Below are positions 1,054 through 10,051 of a stretch of DNA of 25,267 nt, one piece after another. Where the stretch lies: positions 1-25,267 of the IMG/VR virus record IMGVR_UViG_2684622620_000017; one strand, written 5' to 3'. Each line of letters starts with the position of its first letter. The stretch's first letter is position 1. The notes below the pieces were generated by a model that worked only from the letters and a program-made list of their open reading frames with translations, did no database searches and was not told where the DNA came from. The translations under genes were made by a program, and so were the position numbers. This DNA is from a virus (lineage: Duplodnaviria > Heunggongvirae > Uroviricota > Caudoviricetes).

Positions 1054-1082
1054 AAAAAATGCCCTCCAGTGGAGAGTATTTA

Positions 1083-1102
1083 TACTGTTTTTTTATACAG
1101 TG
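1083..1102. promoter_or_regulatory. LexA-box-like palindrome (TACTGT-N8-ACAGTG) immediately upstream of int
   Basis: Sequence tactgtttttttatacagtg matches the CTGT-N8-ACAG SOS-box core with an AT-rich spacer; lies in the 90-bp gap between the membrane-protein gene stop (1144) and the int start (1053). Confidence 0.35.
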
Positions 1103-1143
1103 TCAATGTATGATGATTGGATAACTATACATATGTTATGTGT

Positions 1144-1824
1144 TTAATGCATTTTAGTTACATCTATGTTTTTATTGATTGTCTCTTTGTTACTGGAAAG
1201 TCTTTGTTCTTTTCTTTTAATGTATAACTCCCAACGAATATTATTCATTATGATAGCGTAGATATTAAAAATAAAAGTCTTTACTACTAACACTAAGTAA
1301 ATAAGGCTAGTCCCTATAACACAGTATCCAAATTTAATAATTAATTCTTTTATCGATTTTGAATATGGAAATAAATCAATTATATTGCCAATTATTCCAT
1401 CTTTTTGACAAAAGAGAATTATTATTAGATAAATGAAAGTAAACGTAATAAATGAGATGAAAACTTTCATAAATGCCATAAAGTTATATTTTAACGTGGG
1501 CATCTGTGTTTTTTTATGTTGTATTGACATCATCTGAAGAAACATCTCGGGTTTGGATAGTGTTGCAAATATTGTGAAACCAGCAATGAGAAAACCTAAG
1601 GTTGTCACTGCAAAGTTAAAACCAATCAAAGCCCAGTTTCTAATGTCAGATACTAAATGAGACATATCCTTCTCAATAAAAAAAGAGTTTGTTAATAAAA
1701 AAATAGATGCTGTGAGCAAAATGCAAATATGGAATGTACTAATAGTAATCCGTTTGCAGAGCAAGTAAACATCCCAAAGGTTTTTCTCTTTGGTTATTTC
1801 TTTAGCATCTATTTTATTTATCAT
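1144..1824 (-). CDS. Hypothetical multi-pass inner-membrane protein (226 aa), distal gene of an AT-rich two-gene cassette; candidate membrane effector
   Basis: Translation shows 4-5 long hydrophobic segments (e.g. ITISTFHICILLTASIFLLTN, WALIGFNFAVTTLGFLIAGFTIFATL, FMAFMKVFISFITFTFIYLIIILF); AT-rich codon usage unlike flanking phage genes; start overlaps the stop of the upstream ORF (ATGA at 1821-1824). Confidence 0.7.
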   Translation of the reverse strand: MINKIDAKEITKEKNLWDVYLLCKRITISTFHICILLTASIFLLTNSFFIEKDMSHLVSDIRNWALIGFNFAVTTLGFLIAGFTIFATLSKPEMFLQMMSIQHKKTQMPTLKYNFMAFMKVFISFITFTFIYLIIILFCQKDGIIGNIIDLFPYSKSIKELIIKFGYCVIGTSLIYLVLVVKTFIFNIYAIIMNNIRWELYIKRKEQRLSSNKETINKNIDVTKMH

Positions 1825-2849
1825 CGACCAAACCTTTCATATATATTGCTAATAATTCTAATCGTCTTTTGTGAAAGAGAACGGGGTAGAGATATCTTAC
1901 CTTCTTCTACAAGATTTTCATACCGCTCATAACTTTCATTTGCAGCTACTACCGTATCCTTTGATAATTCATTCATCTCACTTAACAAAACAAAGTCATC
2001 ATTGCTACCTTTGATTATATCACCATTGTCATCATATCCTTTAATATTTATTCCTGAATTAGCCAATCTGGTTGCTGATGTGAGTTGTTCTAAAACAGCA
2101 CCATGATTCAAGCCTGAATCGGTGTTTGAAAAGCGAATAGATGTAGAAATACTTCCCATTTCGTCTCCGGCACTTTCAAGTGACTCCCAAAATTCGTCGT
2201 TATCAATTTCTTCTTGATTTGTAGGGAGAAGTTTTACTGAGACATTTTGGATTTTATTAAAATTATCAATAAATTGCTCTAGGCTTTGTTTGTCAGTTAA
2301 CGGCGTTATTCTTAGCTTCGGGCGTTTGATTTCGTTCCGTAAGCTTTTTTTAGTGACTCGAGGTAAGTCAGGGTTTTCTTTGCGTTCTTCTTGTGCGGTT
2401 TCGTATAAATGAGATATGTATTTTTCATATTCTATGTTTAAGAAACACTGACTTGTTGACTGAAAGTTTTGAATTGTGGGAGCACCACTAACTTCCTTGC
2501 AAAGAATTAATCTGTGAGTGTTTAATATTAGAAGAAAGAAAGAGCTCGGGGCTGTTTCAAGCTCTTTATGATCTTCAACCAAATCAGCACCATCAAATAC
2601 TTGTTCTCTGGTTAATAATGTATTCTTAATAATCCGACCTTTAATTCCGAGTACTGGGGGTGTTGCTTCTTCGTCAAGTATGACGCATTCAGTATCAATG
2701 AAAAAGAACTCTGATTTGTCAGATATTCTGCGGATGTTTGCCATCTCCAAAAAAGAGGGGAAAACAATTTCATCATAATAGTCTAGCAAAACATCATCAC
2801 CAAAACGGAGAGTATAATTTCCAAATTCGAGTTTTTTTATAAAATCCAT
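1821..2849 (-). CDS. Hypothetical soluble protein (342 aa), proximal gene of the AT-rich two-gene cassette; no family recognised
   Basis: Long AT-rich ORF; GAGG RBS about 8 nt upstream of the ATG at 2849; starts 15 nt downstream of the cI stop; no P-loop or other motif I can identify by eye. Confidence 0.7.
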   Translation of the reverse strand: MDFIKKLEFGNYTLRFGDDVLLDYYDEIVFPSFLEMANIRRISDKSEFFFIDTECVILDEEATPPVLGIKGRIIKNTLLTREQVFDGADLVEDHKELETAPSSFFLLILNTHRLILCKEVSGAPTIQNFQSTSQCFLNIEYEKYISHLYETAQEERKENPDLPRVTKKSLRNEIKRPKLRITPLTDKQSLEQFIDNFNKIQNVSVKLLPTNQEEIDNDEFWESLESAGDEMGSISTSIRFSNTDSGLNHGAVLEQLTSATRLANSGINIKGYDDNGDIIKGSNDDFVLLSEMNELSKDTVVAANESYERYENLVEEGKISLPRSLSQKTIRIISNIYERFGR

Positions 2850-2864
2850 TACTATGCCTCAAGA

Positions 2865-3743
2865 TTAAATAGTACGGTACTGTGAGAAAATTTTGGCAAC
2901 TAATTTTATATCTTCTTTTTCACAATCAAATGTTAAATCATCGTCTGTTACTCGAAGATTGCCTCCAGGTAATAGAAAAATTTGTTTTAACTTGAAATTA
3001 TTTTGGTATTGAACAATCCATCTTCCGTCTTCAACATTAGCTTTATTCATGTGTGCAATATTTATGCAATGTTCGTCTTCAATTGCGAGTAAATCATTAA
3101 AATGAGGAAGCAGGGACTTATCTATCAATAAATGACCAGCATCGAAAATTTGATTGTCAATAAGTTTTACTTTAGGAATTTCTAAAGCTTCACTTTCTTC
3201 GCTTCCAAGTTTTTGCCCGCGCCCAGTTGCTAACCATAAAAGAGAAGTTCTTGTTTCCAACGAGCATCTTATGATCCAGTCAGCTGGGAATGTGTCTCGC
3301 AAGTATCTATTCGCCATTGTGCTTTTAGACACATTCAAATGGTCGGCAAGTTCTTGTCTTGTTTTAAAGCCATACGCTTCCATTAGCCTGTTTATCGCAT
3401 TACGTCCACCTGAATCCAGATTTGGATGGTTCACAATTGGGTTCTCGTTGGTGGTGGCTTTGGGAACATATTGAACCAATGATGCTGGTTCCTCTAATTT
3501 AGCGGGAACTTCGGTATTCTTAGGAAATGGCACGCCTTTTCCGAATGAGAGCCACTCTATAGATGCTCCTGTTTCAATTGCACACTGAATTACCCAGTCA
3601 GCAGGAAATGCGTCACGCATCCAGCGCGTTCCCATAGTACTTGCAGATACATTGAACTGTTCACATAGGGCTTGCCGCGTCTTGAATCCATACGCTTCAA
3701 GCATGCGCGTTATGACTGCCTGTCCTCCGTTTTTGAAATTCAT
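2865..3743 (-). CDS. cI: 186-type CI immunity repressor with a tandem-duplicated N-terminal DNA-binding domain plus C-terminal domain; no LexA-like peptidase domain evident
   Basis: Two internally homologous segments (RMLEAYGFKTRQALCEQFNVSASTMGTRWMRDAFPADWVIQCAIETGASIEWL and RLMEAYGFKTRQELADHLNVSKSTMANRYLRDTFPADWIIRCSLETRTSLLWL) of the phage CI-repressor DNA-binding type. The maximal ORF begins at a GTG at 3776, but the first ATG (3743) has a better context and the GTG overlaps the putative rightward promoter, so 3743 is used. Confidence 0.8.
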   Translation of the reverse strand: MNFKNGGQAVITRMLEAYGFKTRQALCEQFNVSASTMGTRWMRDAFPADWVIQCAIETGASIEWLSFGKGVPFPKNTEVPAKLEEPASLVQYVPKATTNENPIVNHPNLDSGGRNAINRLMEAYGFKTRQELADHLNVSKSTMANRYLRDTFPADWIIRCSLETRTSLLWLATGRGQKLGSEESEALEIPKVKLIDNQIFDAGHLLIDKSLLPHFNDLLAIEDEHCINIAHMNKANVEDGRWIVQYQNNFKLKQIFLLPGGNLRVTDDDLTFDCEKEDIKLVAKIFSQYRTI

Positions 3744-3769
3744 CTGGTACGCCTTTGAGTAATATTGAG

Positions 3770-3798
3770 TTGACACTTCTCAAATGAAGAATTAATGT
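3770..3798 (+). promoter_or_regulatory. Candidate rightward early (lytic, pR-like) sigma70 promoter in the cI/apl switch region
   Basis: TTGACA at 3770-3775, 17-nt spacer, TAATGT at 3793-3798 (or ATTAAT with 15-nt spacer); repeated TTGAC motifs nearby could be operator half-sites; located between the divergent cI and apl-like genes. Confidence 0.4.
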
Positions 3799-3868
3799 GT
3801 GCGAAAGTGAACTTGACGGTGTTAATCACCAGTTACCACACATCATGTTAATCGAGGAATCTTGCATC

Positions 3869-4090
3869 ATGACTCCACATATTTCAATCACCTTAGCTGT
3901 TCCATCTGTTTCTATTGAGAAATACAGCGAACTGACTGGCTTATCTATCGACACCATCAATGACATGCTGGCTGATGGACGTCTTATTCGCCATCGTCTC
4001 CGGAAGGACAAAAAAAGAGAAAAGGTAATGATCAACCTTGCTGCTCTTACCGTTGATGCACTTACTGATTGCAATGTTGTATTCAACTAG
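3869..4090 (+). CDS. Apl/Cox-like small HTH protein (excisionase / lytic-promoter repressor type)
   Basis: 73-aa ORF directly downstream of the candidate pR and divergent from cI; sequence ([24 protein letters not shown]) looks like a helix-turn-helix; start could alternatively be the ATG at 3845. Confidence 0.55.
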
Positions 4091-4122
4091 TTCCATTTTG
4101 GGATATATCAGGGGTGTCGACT

Positions 4123-4632
4123 ATGTTTGATTACCAAGTTTCCAAACATCCACATTTTGATGAAGCCTGTCGTGCATTCGCGTTGCGCCACAACCTGGTG
4201 CAACTGGCAGAACGTGCAGGCATGAATGTGCAGATTCTGCGGAACAAGCTGAACCCAGCTCAACCTCATTTATTAACCGCACCAGACATCTGGCTGCTTA
4301 CCGATCTGACTGAGGATTCAACGCTGGTAGATGGTTTTCTGGCACAGATTCATTGTCTGCCATGTGTACCAATTAATGAGGTGGCAAAAGAGAAACTGCC
4401 ACATTACGTCATGAGTGCAACCGCAGAGATCGGGCGTGTTGCTGCAGGTGCGGTATCTGGCGATGTAAAAACCAGTGCAGGTCGTCGTGATGCTATCAGC
4501 AGCATTAACTCTGTAACACGACTGATGGCGCTGGCTGCTGTTTCATTGCAGGCCCGTTTACAGGCTAATCCTGCGATGGCGAGCGCAGTTGATACCGTGA
4601 CTGGCCTCGGTGCTTCATTCGGTTTGCTGTGA
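4123..4632 (+). CDS. cII: CII-like lysogeny-establishment transcription factor (186 CII type)
   Basis: 169-aa ORF, the same length as phage 186 CII as I recall it, in the position expected after apl; the homology itself is not verified here; start chosen at the ATG at 4123. Confidence 0.65.
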
Positions 4633-4639
4633 GGTGCTT

Positions 4640-4840
4640 ATGCTTACGAAAGAACCATCATTTGCATCGCTGCTGGTAAAGCAAAGCCCGGCAATGCACT
4701 ACGGTCACGGCTGGATCATGGGTGAGGATGGTAAACGCTGGCATCCATGCCGTTCACAAGATGAATTGCTGGCAGAACTATCTACGAAAAAACGGGGGAA
4801 CAAATGGCTATTAATGGCGCTGCAGCAACTGTTCCATTAA
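4640..4840 (+). CDS. Small hypothetical early protein (66 aa) in the position of 186 fil
   Basis: ORF with GAGGTG RBS upstream of the ATG at 4640; function not recognisable from sequence. Confidence 0.45.
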   Translation: MLTKEPSFASLLVKQSPAMHYGHGWIMGEDGKRWHPCRSQDELLAELSTKKRGNKWLLMALQQLFH

Positions 4841-5145
4841 GCCCCGGTGAACGCCTGAATGGACTTAATCACATTGCGGAGTTAAGGGCGAAAGTTTTTG
4901 GCCTGAATATTGAGTCAGAGCTTGAGCGGTTTATTAAAGATATGCGTGATCCACGGGATATCAATAATGAACAAAATAAACGGGCACTGGCTGCCATATT
5001 CTTTATGGCAAAAATTCCAGCTGAACGTCATAGCATCAGCATTAATGAGCTGACCACTGACGAAAAGCGGGAGCTGATTAAAGCAATGAATCATTTTCGT
5101 GCAGTGGTGAGCTTATTTCCCAGACGGCTAACCATGCCGAATTAA
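4804..5145 (+). CDS. Hypothetical early-region protein (113 aa)
   Basis: ORF with G-rich RBS upstream of the ATG at 4804; overlaps the end of the previous ORF; no motif recognised. Confidence 0.55.
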   Translation: MAINGAAATVPLSPGERLNGLNHIAELRAKVFGLNIESELERFIKDMRDPRDINNEQNKRALAAIFFMAKIPAERHSISINELTTDEKRELIKAMNHFRAVVSLFPRRLTMPN

Positions 5146-5212
5146 CCAACTAATGAAATTAATGGCGTAAACCCGCCGGGCATCCCTTTATCTAAATTCA
5201 GGAGAATTGATT

Positions 5213-5446
5213 ATGCGTAATATTGATACCCTCACGACTAAAACCGGACCGGATGACGCAGGGCTTAATATTTTACTGACAGAGGCTCGTCTGGAAGAAC
5301 GCCGGGCAAGGGCTGAAGCAATGGCAGCTCGCCTTGATCGCCTGGCGTGTCATATCACATCCCGCCAGTTAAACCACGTCGAAGCGGCAGAACTGCTGCG
5401 TGTGACTGCTGAAGCAATCCAGAACGAAGCGCAGGAGATCCACTGA
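5213..5446 (+). CDS. Hypothetical early-region protein (77 aa)
   Basis: GGAGA RBS 7 nt upstream of the ATG at 5213; stop overlaps the start of the downstream zinc-finger gene (TGATG). Confidence 0.55.
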   Translation: MRNIDTLTTKTGPDDAGLNILLTEARLEERRARAEAMAARLDRLACHITSRQLNHVEAAELLRVTAEAIQNEAQEIH

Positions 5447-5673
5447 TGGCTGATGCAATGGATCTCGTCCAGCAGCGCGTTGAAGAAGAACGCCAACGTC
5501 ATATCCGTGCTGCCCGTGCCAAAACGCCGGGCGTGTCCCGCGTGCTTTGCGTTGAGTGTGAAGCGCCAATTCCGCCAGCACGCCGTCGTGCCATTCCGGG
5601 TGTGCAGCTTTGCATTACCTGTCAGGAAATCGCAGAGCTGAAAGGCAAACATTACAACGGAGGTGCTGTATGA
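5446..5673 (+). CDS. TraR/DksA-family C4 zinc-finger protein
   Basis: 75-aa protein with CVEC-x17-CITC (C-x2-C...C-x2-C) arrangement typical of phage TraR/DksA-like zinc fingers; translationally coupled to neighbours. Confidence 0.75.
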   Translation: MADAMDLVQQRVEEERQRHIRAARAKTPGVSRVLCVECEAPIPPARRRAIPGVQLCITCQEIAELKGKHYNGGAV

Positions 5674-6527
5674 GCACCATCCTGAAATGGGCGGGAAATA
5701 AAACCGCCATAATGTCCGAACTGAAAAAGCATCTTCCTGCTGGCCCACGACTGGTTGAACCTTTCGCGGGTTCCTGTGCAGTGATGATGGAGACGGATTA
5801 CCCCAGCTATCTTGTTGCGGATATTAATCCTGATTTAATCAACCTCTATAAAAAGGTTGCTGCTGATTGTGAGGCGTTTATATCTCGTGCCAGAGCTTTA
5901 TTTGAGGAAGCAAACAGGGAGGTGGCTTATTACAACATAAGGCAGGAGTTTAATTACTCCACTGAAATTACTGATTTCATGAAAGCGGTATATTTTCTGT
6001 ATCTCAATCGTCATGGTTACCGTGGGTTATGTCGCTATAACAAGAGCGGGTATTTCAACATTCCCTACGGTAATTATAAAAATCCGTATTTCCCTGAAAA
6101 AGAAATTCGCGCATTTGCAGAGAAAGCCCAGCGGGCAACGTTTATCTGCGCCAGCTTTGATGAAACGCTGGCGATGTTGAAGGCGGGGGATGTGGTGTAT
6201 TGCGATCCGCCGTATGACGGTACGTTTTCCGGCTATCACACTGATGGTTTCACTGAAGATGACCAGTATCACCTGGCATCCGTTCTTGAACATCGGTCAT
6301 CAGAAGGACATCCGGTCATTGTTTCTAACAGTGACACATCCCTGATCCGTTCGCTGTATCGCAATTTTACTCACCACTACATCAAGGCAAAACGCAGCAT
6401 CGGTGTGGCAGCTGGTGATAGTAAATCTGCAACAGAAATCATTGCTGTTTCCGGGGCGCGCTGCTGGGTGGGATTTGATCCTTCGCGTGGCGTAGATAGT
6501 TCTGCTGTGTACGAGGTGCGTGTATGA
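5670..6527 (+). CDS. Dam-like N6-adenine DNA methyltransferase (orphan, no cognate endonuclease in window)
   Basis: N-terminal AdoMet-binding-like motif (LKWAGNK...VEPFAGS) and catalytic DPPY motif ([11 protein letters not shown]); GGAGGTG RBS upstream of the ATG at 5670, which overlaps the upstream stop. Confidence 0.8.
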
Positions 6528-8938
6528 GTCATGACGATATGAGCAACTCTAGCGGCTTTAACGAGGCCGCTGCATCATTTTCATGGAACGGCCCGAAAAA
6601 GGCCATTAACCCTTATCTGGACCCGGCGGAATTTGCGCCGGAGTCTGCACTTTCAAACCTGATCACTCTGTATGCTGCCGATAACGAGCAGGAACAACTG
6701 CGCCGCGAGGCACTGAGTGAGCAGGTCTGGGAGCGTTATTTCTTTAATGAATCCCGTGATCCTGTCCAGCGCGAAATGGAGCAGGATAAGCTCATTAGCC
6801 GGGCAAAGCTGGCGCATGAGCAGCAGCGTTTTAATCCAGACATGGTCATTCTGGCTGACGTCAACGCCCAGCCTTCCCATATCAGCAAGCCGCTGATGCA
6901 ACGTATTGAATACTTCAGCAGTCTGGGCAGGCCAAAGGCTTATTCCCGCTATTTGCGTGAGACGATTAAGCCATGTCTGGAACGACTGGAGCATGTACGC
7001 GACAGTCAGCTATCCACTTCTTTTCGCTTTATGGCAAGCCATGAAGGGCTGGACGGCCTGCTGATCCTGCCTGAAATGAGTCAGGATCAGGTGAAACGCC
7101 TGTCTACCCTTGTCGCTGCGCATATGAGCATGTGTCTTGATGCCGCTTGTGGTGATTTGTACGCCACCGATGATGTTAAGCCAGAAGAAATCCGCAAGAC
7201 ATGGGAAAAGGTGGCAGCGGAAACCCTACGTTTGGATGTCATCCCGCCTGCGTTTGAGCAACTCCGTCGGAAAAGAAACCGCCGTAAACCCGTGCCCTAT
7301 GAACTCATTCCGGGCTCGCTGGCGCGTATGCTGTGCGCCGACTGGTGGTATCGGAAATTGTGGAAGATGCGTTGCGAATGGCGGGAAGAGCAGTTGCGTG
7401 CTGTCTGCCTGGTCAGCAAAAAAGCATCTCCCTATGTCAGCTATGAAGCTGTGATGCATAAACGTGAGCAGTGCCGTAAGTCGCTGGAGTTTTTCCGTTC
7501 TCATGAACTGGTGAACGAAGACGGAGACGCGCTGGATATGGAAGATGTGGTAAACGCCAGCTGCAGCAACCCGGCGCATCGCCGCAATGAGATGATGGCC
7601 TGTGTTAAAGGTCTGGAGCTTATCGCGGAAATGCGCGGTGACTGCGCCGTTTTCTACACCATTACCTGTCCGTCACGTTTCCATTCCACGCTCAATAACG
7701 GCAGACCCAATCCGACCTGGAAAAACGCGACGGTAAGACAAAGCAGCGATTATCTGGTCGGTATGTTTGCTGCATTTCGTAAGGCGATGCACAAAGCCGG
7801 GTTGCGCTGGTATGGCGTGCGGGTGGCTGAGCCGCATCACGACGGCACAGTTCACTGGCACCTGTTGTGTTTCATGCGCAAAAAAGACCGCCGCGCCATT
7901 ACTGCATTGTTGCGTAAGTTTGCTATCCGTGAAGACCGCGAGGAGCTGGGCAATAACACGGGGCCGCGCTTTAAGTCTGAGCTGATTAACCCGCGCAAAG
8001 GAACGCCGACAAGCTACATAGCGAAATACATCAGTAAGAACATTGACGGGCGTGGTCTGGCTGGCGAGATCAGCAAGGAAACGGGTAAATCCCTGCGTGA
8101 TAACGCTGAATACGTGAATGCCTGGGCGTCTTTGCATCGTGTTCAGCAATTCCGCTTCTTTGGTATTCCGGGGCGTCAGGCTTACCGTGAACTGCGATTG
8201 CTGGCTGGTCAGGCGGCAAGGCAGCAGGGTGACAAAAAAGCAGGTGTGCCGGTACTGGATAACCCGCGCCTTGATGCCATTCTGGCTGCTGCTGATGCTG
8301 GTTGTTTTGCCACCTATATCATGAAGCAGGGAGGTGTACTGGTTCCCCGTAAATATCACCTCATCAGAACTGCTTATGAAATTAACGAAGAGCCGACCGC
8401 CTATGGCGATCACGGTATTCGTATTTATGGCATCTGGTCACCCATTGCAGAGGGCAAGATCTGCACTCATGCAGTGAAGTGGAAAATGGTTCGTAAGGCC
8501 GTTGACGTTCAGGAGGCGGTAGCCGACCAGAGCGCTTGCGCCCCTTGGACTCGTGGCAATAACTGTCCCCTTGCTGAAAATTTGAACCAACAAGGGAAAG
8601 ACAAATCAGCTGATGGGGACTCCAGAACGGATATTACCCGTATGAATGACAAGGAGTTGCACGATTACCTGCACAGTATGAGCAAAAAAGAGCGCCGGGA
8701 ACTGGCTGCAAGGTTACGCCAGGTGAAACCGAAACGGCGTAAAGACTACAAACAGCGAATTACAGACCATCAGCGACAGCAGCTCGTCTATGAACTGAAG
8801 TCCAGGGGATTTGATGGCAGCGAGAAAGAAGTCGATTTGCTCCTTCGCGGCGGCAGTATTCCGTCAGGAGCAGGCCTGCGTATCTTCTATCGGAACCAGC
8901 GTCTGAAGGAAGATGATAAGTGGCGGAACCTGTATTAA
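6524..8938 (+). CDS. A: Replication initiation protein A (rolling-circle nicking endonuclease, P2 gpA type)
   Basis: 804-aa ORF; HUH-like motif (TVHWHLL) and paired active-site tyrosines (YIAKYISK) typical of P2 A protein; position after the early operon. Confidence 0.9.
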
Positions 8939-9030
8939 TTACGCGGGTTAACAATTCGTGCTCTTAATAATACCAGGCATATCAGGCCGATGAACGTAAA
9001 AAAACGTTTTACATCAGTAAGATTATTATA

Positions 9031-9050
9031 TACTGTAAATATAAACAGTG
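9031..9050. promoter_or_regulatory. LexA (SOS) box within the promoter region of the small-ORF/DinI-like operon
   Basis: tactgtaaatataaacagtg matches the CTGT-N8-ACAG palindrome with an AT-rich spacer; located about 40 bp upstream of a strong RBS (AGGAGG) and the ATG at 9091. Confidence 0.55.
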
Positions 9051-9090
9051 GTTATGTATACAGTATTGTTTTGGTGTCATAGGAGGAAAG

Positions 9091-9279
9091 ATGCAGGACT
9101 ATTTTTTGGAGTCTTTGAAGCTCCAGCGCATTGATTTTTTTCTTAAGCTTGTAGCGGCTAGTGAGTGTAGTGATGAAGAGAAGGGGCTGGCTCTGCAGTG
9201 GGTTTCTGAATTGACAGATGAACTCATGGCAAAAATCAGAAGCCACGAATACAACCGCTCAATGGATGTCATCAGCTGA
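9091..9279 (+). CDS. Small protein (62 aa) in an SOS-controlled operon; candidate Tum-like antirepressor (by position only)
   Basis: AGGAGG RBS 5 nt upstream of the ATG; LexA box upstream; followed 10 nt later by the DinI-like gene. In phage 186 the LexA-controlled operon at this genomic position encodes the antirepressor Tum; homology not verified. Confidence 0.5.
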   Translation: MQDYFLESLKLQRIDFFLKLVAASECSDEEKGLALQWVSELTDELMAKIRSHEYNRSMDVIS

Positions 9280-9289
9280 GGTGACTTTT

Positions 9290-9523
9290 ATGCGCATTGA
9301 AATAATGATCGATAAAGAGCAGAAGATTAGCCAGTCTACCCTGGACGCCCTTGAATCCGAGCTTTACCGCAATCTGCGCCCCCTGTATCCCAAAACGGTA
9401 ATTCGCATTCGCAAAGGTAGCTCTAACGGTGTGGAACTAACCGGACTGCAACTGGATGAAGAAAGAAAACAAGTGATGAAAATTATGCAGAAGGTGTGGG
9501 AGGACGACAGCTGGCTGCATTAA
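9290..9523 (+). CDS. DinI-family protein (damage-inducible, RecA modulator type)
   Basis: 77-aa protein MRIEIMIDKEQKISQSTLDALESELYRNL...QKVWEDDSWL has the DinI family pattern (MRIE... start, acidic C-terminus ending in W); GAGGTG RBS; downstream of the LexA box. Confidence 0.75.
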   Translation: MRIEIMIDKEQKISQSTLDALESELYRNLRPLYPKTVIRIRKGSSNGVELTGLQLDEERKQVMKIMQKVWEDDSWLH

Positions 9524-9531
9524 GAAATGTT

Positions 9532-9566
9532 GCCCCCAGGAGGATTCATTCTGATGGGGGCTAGTT
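9532..9566 (+). terminator. Candidate intrinsic terminator after the DinI-like gene
   Basis: GC-rich inverted repeat GCCCCCA (9532-9538) / TGGGGGC (9555-9561) followed by TAGTTTG; the loop is long (16 nt), so this is a weak call. Confidence 0.3.
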
Positions 9567-9715
9567 TGGGCAATGAGTGAAATAAGGCGTAAGGTGGGCG
9601 GTTATTTTGATAAGTGATCGTCCGCTTTGTGTCAGAAGCAGAAGTGGGAGTGTCTGAGACTCTCTAAAAGTTGATGATTCACTTACAAAACCATTTTCCT
9701 GATGGATGCTTACAC

Positions 9716-10051
9716 TTACGAATGATCATTCTGTTTAGTCTTCATGAGAAAATCCCGAATCTTTGCCAAGTTTGAATTTTCGGGGATTGAATCCATGTAC
9801 GGATCACGCTCAAACACTAATTGCTCAGATTCAACGAAAGCCTGCCACTCTACTGGGTCTAGCTCAAATCCCATTGCTGTCATATCACTTTCATCTTCCC
9901 CCTCGATCCAGTGGACTAAATAAAACAATTCATCATCAGGAGAATCATCCTCACCATCAACAATATCAACATCGGTTACAGTGATACGTAGGGTGGGATC
10001 GATTTTTGAAACATAAATTCCTAACTGTGGTATAGGGGGAATATTGTTCAT
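9716..10051 (-). CDS. Small, strongly acidic hypothetical protein (111 aa)
   Basis: AGGAG RBS about 8 nt upstream of the ATG at 10051; translation is rich in Asp/Glu (e.g. DVDIVDGEDDSPDDELF, EGEDESD); lies in the accessory region between the DinI-like gene and the cos-like motif. Confidence 0.6.
   Translation of the reverse strand: MNNIPPIPQLGIYVSKIDPTLRITVTDVDIVDGEDDSPDDELFYLVHWIEGEDESDMTAMGFELDPVEWQAFVESEQLVFERDPYMDSIPENSNLAKIRDFLMKTKQNDHS

Follow-up and report, generated by a model that had tools for sequence, protein, structure and literature searches.

Phage 186 is induced through SOS derepression of its LexA-regulated promoter p95, which leads to production of Tum and sequestration of CI (PMC7708051); binding by Tum reversibly prevents CI from holding its DNA and is needed for induction by UV or mitomycin, and the same is reported for PSP3 TumA. 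Lemire et al. 2011 (PMC3121763, citing Bunny et al. 2002 / G. Christie personal communication) note that the second half of Tum is DinI-like, that the tum reading frame of Fels-2 and PSP3 is divided by a stop codon, and that the antirepressor activity in PSP3 sits in the upstream gene. The DNA analyzed here, a stretch of 25,267 nucleotides referred to throughout as the window, represents a P2/186-like prophage of E. coli and over its first 4.1 kb shows 100% identity to one adjoining rcdA in E. coli 20A24. It contains a small operon that is very probably the tumA-tumB SOS operon of an integrated E. coli prophage, a Fels-2-type phage within the P2/186 group. This arrangement has already been described for 186, PSP3 and Fels-2, and finding it here is a rediscovery of the published split-tum SOS operon. 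Induction of the prophage most likely proceeds through a LexA-controlled antirepressor, not through repressor cleavage, and the label 'hypothetical protein' on a very common gene of enterobacterial prophages hides a known function. The parts that are worth experiment are the double, colicin-type LexA operator, a putative LexA-gated cassette in front of int, and the finding that a single TumA accompanies many different CI repressors.

The segment from 8900 to 9530 has 96–97.5% identity to Fels-2 and to related P2-like phages of Escherichia, Klebsiella and Salmonella (~97% in a DNA comparison with the STM2728–STM2726.1 region of Fels-2), and Fels-2 and these relatives have in common a set of three genes, gpA, a gene for a 62-aa protein, and a DinI-like gene. 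The operon lies directly after gpA in this P2/186-type genome, with a gap of 152 nt between the end of gpA (8938) and the 62-aa ORF, and continues into the DinI-like module; the order gpA, tumA, DinI-like is identical in Fels-2 and PSP3, and 186 has a fused equivalent at the same site. The first-pass annotation of this DNA had described a LexA-box-controlled operon encoding a small protein and a DinI-like protein, and had proposed that it provides SOS induction via an antirepressor. Every particular that it reported as observed is correct on re-reading the sequence: the CTGT-N8-ACAG palindrome at 9031–9050, the core of which we place at 9033–9048 within the 20-mer; the strongly initiated 62-aa ORF, with its AGGAGG 4 nt 5′ of the ATG, which codon variation shows to be a real gene; and the DinI-family ORF, whose ATG at 9290 follows the TGA of the 62-aa ORF after exactly 10 nt (9280–9289). 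The proposed induction route draws support from synteny, promoter layout, profile homology, the domains of CI, and the precedents of 186 and PSP3. The operon was read correctly, and the inference drawn from it is probably right; what had been overlooked is that the arrangement is a published one and that the operator is double. The coordinates of the features are collected in Table 1.

Table 1. Features of the SOS operon and of the associated repressor and int regions, in window coordinates.
Feature	Coordinates	Strand	Basis or remark
Promoter-like site before int	1106-1079	-	-35 TTGACA 1106-1101; -10 TATAAA 1084-1079
cI repressor, 303 aa, two DBDs + CTD, presumed TumA target	2865-3776	-	Pfam
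gpA replication gene	6524-8938		Position directly 5′ of SOS operon
-35 hexamer TTTACA, proposed tum-operon promoter (p95 equivalent)	9008-9013	+	Direct reading; 186 p95 layout
LexA box 1, TACTGTAAATATAAACAGTG	9031-9050	+	CTGT-N8-ACAG core 9033-9048
Putative LexA box 2, CAGTGGTTATGTATACAGTA	9046-9065	+	5-nt overlap (CAGTG) with box 1; colicin-type proximal box
Shine-Dalgarno AGGAGG of 62-aa gene	9081-9086	+	4 nt before ATG; invariant in promoter variants
tumA-like gene, candidate antirepressor, 62 aa	9091-9279	+	phrog_698; predicted helical hairpin
Shine-Dalgarno GAGGTG of DinI-like gene	9278-9283	+	Sequence reading
tumB / DinI-like gene, 77 aa	9290-9523	+	Pfam DinI PF06183

The 77-aa product of the downstream gene is a member of the DinI family, matching Pfam PF06183 over its full length (profile positions 1–63 of 63) with E=6.6e-23 and a score of 81.3 bits, above the gathering cut-off of 24.2. 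It also aligns to positions 71–148 of the 151 in phrog_189, which correspond to the C-terminal half of a Tum-length profile, and it is 100% identical to Fels-2 STM2726.1 (annotated as DinI family, 'similar to PsP3 TumB'), 78% identical to PSP3 TumB, and 41% identical to the C-terminal half of 186 Tum. From its family, and from the note 'modulates SOS induction' attached to 186, we infer that it may bind RecA filaments and modulate the SOS response. The program-made list of open reading frames gives a 101-aa ORF from 9218 at this location, and we have moved the start to 9290 on the basis of homology and of the Fels-2 and RefSeq annotation. A hairpin 3′ of the gene (9532–9561, plus strand) was considered as a terminator and rejected, as it has a 7-bp GC stem, no T-run, and a z-score of -0.99 in a fold of 9518–9600; homology to nearly all relatives stops at this hairpin, and the site is therefore a mosaic boundary.

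The presumed partner of the 62-aa protein is the CI repressor, in which Pfam identifies two Phage_CI_repr stretches and one Phage_CI_C, as in a 186-type repressor; there is no Pfam match in CI to an S24 peptidase (self-cleavage) domain. Because CI is without an S24 domain, RecA-dependent self-cleavage is not expected, and an antirepressor route to induction is. The CI of PSP3 also has two DBDs, and since PSP3 pairs TumA with this double-DBD CI there is a precedent for TumA working with a repressor of such construction.

The repressors that accompany the 62-aa protein were compared across the best 80 IMG/VR loci of its 592 relatives, all with a TumA at least 97–98% identical to that of the window. 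Clustering of the CI proteins from these best 80 loci yields 18 groups at 90% identity and 15 at 70%; representatives of different clusters are 33–87% identical to one another, and the near-invariant TumA occurs both with single-DBD forms of 189–223 aa and with double-DBD forms of 303–318 aa. That a single TumA accompanies so many kinds of CI goes beyond the published picture. The DNA from about 3750, in the switch region, to 9530 forms one block that is ~92–95% identical in nearly all of the 80 loci, whereas almost none of them aligns over 1054–3500, where the cargo and the greater part of cI lie; this is what might be seen if the immunity region (the C-terminal part of cI plus the cargo) had been exchanged by recombination, leaving a genuine LexA-controlled tum operon mismatched with the resident CI in a prophage that is poorly or not at all inducible by SOS. 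It also fits such an exchange that the window CI reaches at most 45% identity with the CI of any of the best 80 loci, and that, where this TumA is present, the C-terminal domains of CI average 34% identity, with a minimum of 19%. However, with near-identical TumA proteins beside so many CI clusters, mismatch would have to be the rule, and yet tumA is under strong purifying selection in all of these contexts; moreover, the DBD next to the C-terminal domain is 55–97% identical (mean 72%) among the CIs that accompany a window-type TumA, such that a conserved target is at hand, and in PSP3 a TumA needed for UV induction is found together with a double-DBD CI. A mismatch between operon and repressor thus seems unlikely to us, and we prefer the reading in which the 62-aa protein acts on the resident CI.

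We note that the CI clusters at 70% identity sort almost perfectly by Tum family, with 31 of 32 clusters being pure. The much higher conservation of the DBD than of the C-terminal domain (72% against 34% on average) would also suit a TumA that binds the DBD. This association of TumA with CI type is explained by linkage, because the DNA from about 3750 to 9530 is a single conserved block and the loci vary only in the rest of cI and in the cargo, and we have dropped covariation as independent evidence for targeting of the DBD by TumA, as linkage together with operator matching accounts for the pattern.

The 62-aa protein matches its own family, phrog_698, with E=5.9e-38 in a PHROG profile search, and residues 1–70 of 186 Tum match the same family with E=5.9e-6 and in register (6–44 to 6–44). 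Both proteins also match a bridging family, phrog_8554 (1.1e-8 for the 186 Tum N-terminus and 3.4e-12 for the 62-aa protein), and the 62-aa protein matches phrog_1993, the PSP3 TumA family, at 0.002. With small family alignments, hhalign pairs 14–42 with 16–44 (P=0.005) and lines up a single shared Cys and the motif [LI]A[LI]-x-[LW][IV][AS][ED][LI], at a probability of only 7% because the family alignments are shallow. Pairwise BLASTP gave no alignment of the 62-aa protein with either PSP3 TumA or the N-terminal half of 186 Tum, and because of this and the 7% hhalign probability the homology to Tum rests on profile searches and synteny. At the profile level, then, these comparisons support homology of the 62-aa protein to PSP3 TumA and to the N-terminal half of 186 Tum, which is not DinI-like and carries the antirepressor function. 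The first-pass annotation had proposed alignment of both proteins of the operon, and here the outcomes differ: the 77-aa protein is related to both DinI and the C-terminal half of Tum, as described above, whereas the similarity of the 62-aa protein to 186 Tum is found in profiles and not by pairwise BLASTP. Its suggestion that the 62-aa protein is a candidate antirepressor acting on the double-DBD CI gains from the profile homology, from the upstream gene of PSP3, and from the two Phage_CI_repr stretches that we find in CI, and we consider this the probable partnership.

The 62-aa protein is 96.8% identical to Fels-2 STM2728, which is annotated as hypothetical, and it and its relatives are otherwise listed as 'hypothetical protein' or as 'levan regulatory protein'; there are 592 relatives in IMG/VR and 484 protein-database clusters, with hosts that include Escherichia, Salmonella, Klebsiella, Enterobacter, Citrobacter, Raoultella, Kosakonia, Pectobacterium and Lonsdalea. 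A Pfam search with the 62-aa protein returned nothing meaningful. An AlphaFold2 model (pLDDT 89.8) predicts a two-helix hairpin, with helices at 2–23 and 28–61 and the conserved core surrounding the turn, and Foldseek searches of BFVD and the PDB with this model recovered generic helical hairpins only, all with E above 0.5. These unspecific fold matches, the weak pairwise similarity to Tum, and the constant linkage of the gene to the DinI-like gene in related loci would each be compatible with an accessory SOS protein, for example a partner or modulator of the DinI-like protein, of RecA or of LexA, in place of a CI antirepressor, in which case induction would have some other basis. We regard this as very unlikely: the profile homology falls on exactly the non-DinI half of Tum, both the PSP3 literature (PMC3121763) and GenBank notes give the upstream small gene an antirepressor/UV-induction function, and a CI that has no self-cleavage domain leaves an antirepressor needed.

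The 62-aa ORF is a real gene under purifying selection. It begins at the first start codon past an in-frame stop and ends at its own TGA (9277–9279), and across 81 related loci 15 of its 18 variable sites are at codon position 3, with 14 variable codons showing synonymous changes only and a single one changing an amino acid; read in the other two frames, the same DNA in the same 81 loci gives synonymous to non-synonymous ratios of 2:12 and 0:15.

Upstream of the gene, the TTTACA hexamer is separated by 17 nt from TACTGT, the presumed -10, which is also the first six bases of LexA box 1; the promoter p95 of 186 has the same layout, being annotated with TTCACA, 18 nt and TACTGT. The TTTACA is invariant across 66 unique promoter variants of related loci. 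TACTGT matches the -10 consensus at three of six positions and fails the -10 rules of a consensus promoter scan, which lists no promoter in 8800–9800; both the tum-operon promoter and the int promoter discussed below are proposed from direct reading and the 186 annotation, not from the scan. The consensus for a LexA box is TACTGTATATATATACAGTA, and box 1 agrees with it at 17 of 20 positions. Across the 66 variants, conservation reaches at least 98% in the CTG and CAG triplets of box 1, and 79 of the 81 loci with a window-type TumA (family A) have a LexA box here. As judged from sequence, the tum-operon promoter has a LexA box over its -10, as anticipated for a LexA-repressed promoter of Tum/TumA. 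The motif CTGT-N8-ACAG occurs twice in the window, compared to 0.21 occurrences expected. Of 239 related loci, representing three Tum families, 234 have it at the tum promoter, while elsewhere there are only 21 examples in 3.9 Mb. Although the intergenic DNA is AT-rich and the consensus scan empty, the notion of a chance palindrome next to a small ORF that is not a gene is already refuted by conservation, in that none of 100 shuffles has two motifs, related loci keep the palindrome, variation in the ORF is almost entirely synonymous, and the protein has hundreds of relatives.

Box 1 is not the only candidate LexA site in the operator, as a second, putative box overlaps it. The left half of box 2 has GTG in place of CTG, and the box taken alone would for this reason be weak. 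Base contacts by LexA are few in the center of its box, and the most variable positions of the operator in the 66 variants are those at the center of box 2 (the major base accounts for 55% at 9056, 62% at 9057 and 88% at 9058), whereas its TACAG (9059–9063) is 97–100% conserved. Along all of its 46 nt, the operator with both boxes is 85–87% identical to operators on small colicin plasmids, among them that of pColR directly upstream of cra, the colicin R gene, and to the operator on pPCP1 directly upstream of pst, which encodes pesticin. The operator thus has both of the traits by which the colicin type may be recognized, two overlapping 20-nt boxes and likeness to characterized operators. Colicin-type double operators bind two LexA dimers and are very tightly repressed (PMC2994835). 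No box 2 is present in the 186 and PSP3 tum promoters, and the double overlapping operator goes beyond the published picture. By comparison with the colicin operators, we infer that the double site may provide tighter repression and later induction.

The second CTGT-N8-ACAG of the window is at 1085–1100, within a putative LexA box at 1083–1102, and stands 31 nt ahead of the int start codon (minus strand). Here the 16-nt spacer (1100–1085) between the two hexamers of a near-consensus, promoter-like site is exactly a LexA core, CTGTATAAAAAAACAG; the consensus promoter scan missed this site because of its -10 rules. Beyond the TATAAA, the minus strand has a hairpin, CTCTCC-ACT-GGAGGG, which holds the ribosome-binding site, then T6, and then the ATG; the predicted start of int transcription coincides with the end of the 5′ arm of this hairpin-T6 terminator. 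A read-through RNA folds over the hairpin at -7.7 kcal/mol (z=-2.85), while an RNA starting at 1071 is without the fold, and a compensatory variant of the stem is found (GCCCTC/GAGGGC vs GTCCTC/GAGGAC).

Among loci with a window-type TumA, 46 of 69 have 363–2621 nt of differing cargo between cI and int. The cassette, with CTG-N10-CAG at -47 to -50, is present in 45 of the 46 cargo-bearing loci and in none of the 23 in which cI abuts int, and no box was found at the int position in the PSP3-type or 186-type loci surveyed. These features suggest that transcripts arriving from cI and the cargo genes would terminate at the hairpin, and that int would be made only from the LexA-repressed promoter. 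A search of the searchable literature found no description of a LexA-gated int cassette, which also goes beyond the published picture.

A plausible course of events can be outlined, in which LexA binding, TumA–CI binding and the role of the DinI-like protein are taken from the 186, PSP3 and Fels-2 literature or inferred. In a lysogen, LexA on the two overlapping boxes would cover the -10 and the transcription start of the p95-like promoter and keep the operon silent. Upon DNA damage, RecA-stimulated cleavage of LexA would free the promoter, although a double site occupied by two LexA dimers, as in the colicin genes, would be expected to open late, after strong or sustained damage. The 62-aa helical-hairpin protein would then bind the 186-type CI, which does not cleave itself, such that the lytic promoter is no longer held shut, and the 77-aa DinI-like protein may alter the SOS signal by modulating RecA filaments.

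More tentatively, and as a possibility that we would not yet favor, the Fels-2-type prophages may possess an undescribed SOS regulon with two promoters. This would combine the double-operator antirepressor operon with a portable cassette having LexA in its promoter spacer, placed before int where cargo separates cI from int such that only SOS-derepressed transcripts reach int, and with a single TumA that serves at least 15 CI types, implying recognition of a conserved DBD over a hypervariable oligomerisation domain. If true, the double operator, the int cassette and the TumA–CI pairing would bear on how tightly and how late commitment to induction occurs, and also on whether co-resident P2-like prophages of different immunity are induced jointly by one antirepressor.

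Of the described systems, Fels-2 is the nearest, having ~97% DNA identity over 8900–9521, the same place after gpA, and the same double LexA operator. It differs in its CI, which has 210 aa, one DBD, and ~36–37% identity to the window CI; in having cI abutting int, where the window has cargo genes and a LexA-box promoter between the two; and in the cargo 3′ of the DinI-like gene. PSP3 resembles the window in its split genes, with a 60-aa TumA followed by a 77-aa TumB (78% identical), and in a CI with two DBDs, and its record describes tumA as 'similar to 5′ end 186 tum; UV induction of prophage' and tumB as 'similar to dinI and 3′ end of 186 tum'. However, PSP3 TumA belongs to phrog_1993 and that of the window to phrog_698, and the intergenic gap in PSP3 is 3 nt. 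In 186 there is likewise a LexA-repressed promoter after gene A, with the -10 TACTGT within the LexA box, and Tum joins an antirepressor N-terminal half to a DinI-like C-terminal half, with CI being sequestered and not cleaved; the 186 record lists a tum of 146 aa that 'inhibits CI DNA binding', a LexA site beginning at the p95 -10, and shorter in-frame DinI-like products. The 186 SOS operon is p95-tum-orf97, with orf97 after tum, unlike the window, and the N-terminal half of 186 Tum is related to the 62-aa protein at the profile level only.

When compared across loci, these three types are distinguished by gene structure and operator. In the 186 type the two halves are fused into 146 aa in 77 of 80 loci, with a single LexA box at -36 from the start codon; in the PSP3 type they are split, with a TumA of 60–61 aa and a single box at -37 to -40 from the start codon; and in the window type they are split with a TumA of 62 aa in all 81 loci, box 1 being at about -59 (79 of 81) and accompanied by box 2.

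Two further systems share parts of this design. The dinI-antirepressor operons of Gifsy-1/2/3 (GfoA, GftA) are also under LexA control and combine a DinI homologue with a small antirepressor that acts on a non-cleavable repressor (PMC3121763), but their dinI precedes the antirepressor gene, neither antirepressors nor repressors are related in sequence, and these are lambdoid phages. The colicin and pesticin operators (pColR cra, pPCP1 pst, ColE1-type) have, as does the window, two 20-nt boxes sharing CAGTG; in pColR the boxes begin after a separate -10, whereas box 1 of the window overlaps the -10, and the plasmid operators control a bacteriocin, whereas that of the window would control the genes for an antirepressor and a DinI homologue.

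Among the 80 best IMG/VR loci carrying the candidate antirepressor TumA in the form found in the window (L006-L085), one and the same 62-aa protein, at least 98% identical throughout, is paired with CI repressors that fall into 18 clusters at 90% identity and 15 at 70%, and these partners include repressors with a single DNA-binding domain (DBD) as well as those with two. Within the CI proteins that share this TumA, the C-terminal domain is hypervariable, with a mean identity of 34%, and the DBD adjacent to it is conserved, with a mean identity of 72%. Any inference from these values as to which CI domain is the target of TumA is confounded by linkage, because nearly all these loci share with the window a single block of 92-95% identity that spans the early operon (about 3750 to 9530).

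The two genes of the tum operon do not vary to the same extent in this set; with tumA near-identical, the DinI-like gene (9290-9523 in the window) is far more variable (84-100% amino-acid identity), a difference suggesting that a recombination boundary separates them. We note also that in one locus (L006, IMGVR_UViG_2634166506_000002) unrelated GC-rich DNA replaces the sequence upstream of LexA box 2, so that tumA is intact, yet its promoter and LexA box 1 are missing.

Convergent with the tum operon is an acidic 111-aa ORF, which the annotation of E. coli 20A24 likewise lists as hypothetical. The region separating the DinI-like gene from the portal gene is variable; in the window it contains a 778-aa ATPase that also matches PDC-S06, a PADLOC candidate defence family (E=1.6e-266), and in 20A24 it is occupied by a retron St85 effector and reverse transcriptase.

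Features flanking cI and the tum operon in the window
Feature	Coordinates	Strand	Match
int gene	1-1053	minus	
int upstream cassette (promoter, hairpin, T6)	1054-1106	minus	
Two overlapping cargo ORFs (342 aa and 226 aa)	1144-2849	minus	
Acidic ORF, 111 aa	9716-10051	minus	phrog_17127, E=2e-70
AAA_13 ATPase, 778 aa	10583-12919	plus	Pfam, E=1.5e-163

A second LexA-type element lies in front of int, where a near-consensus promoter on the minus strand (a -35-like TTGACA at 1106-1101 and TATAAA at 1084-1079) has a 16-nt spacer that is an exact LexA core, CTGTATAAAAAAACAG; it is followed in order by a hairpin containing the Shine-Dalgarno sequence, a T6 run and the int ATG. Such a cassette suggests that int expression is SOS-gated and that read-through is terminated. 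We find it in 45 of the 46 related loci that have cargo genes between cI and int and in none of the 23 in which cI abuts int; the PSP3-type and 186-type loci lack it.

The cargo itself differs, as the slot between cI and int holds other genes in related loci, and a survey of 5426 complete E. coli genomes found the same int-cargo-cI arrangement in 13. Pfam and PADLOC searches gave no match for either the 342-aa or the 226-aa ORF; the product of the latter is hydrophobic and thus possibly a membrane protein.

The window prophage is not alone in having a CI with two DBDs (2865-3776, minus strand), since most CI proteins of the PSP3-type phages (L088-L167) also have two Phage_CI_repr DBDs; the 286-aa CI of PSP3 itself (positions 1219-2079 of locus L249) likewise contains two.
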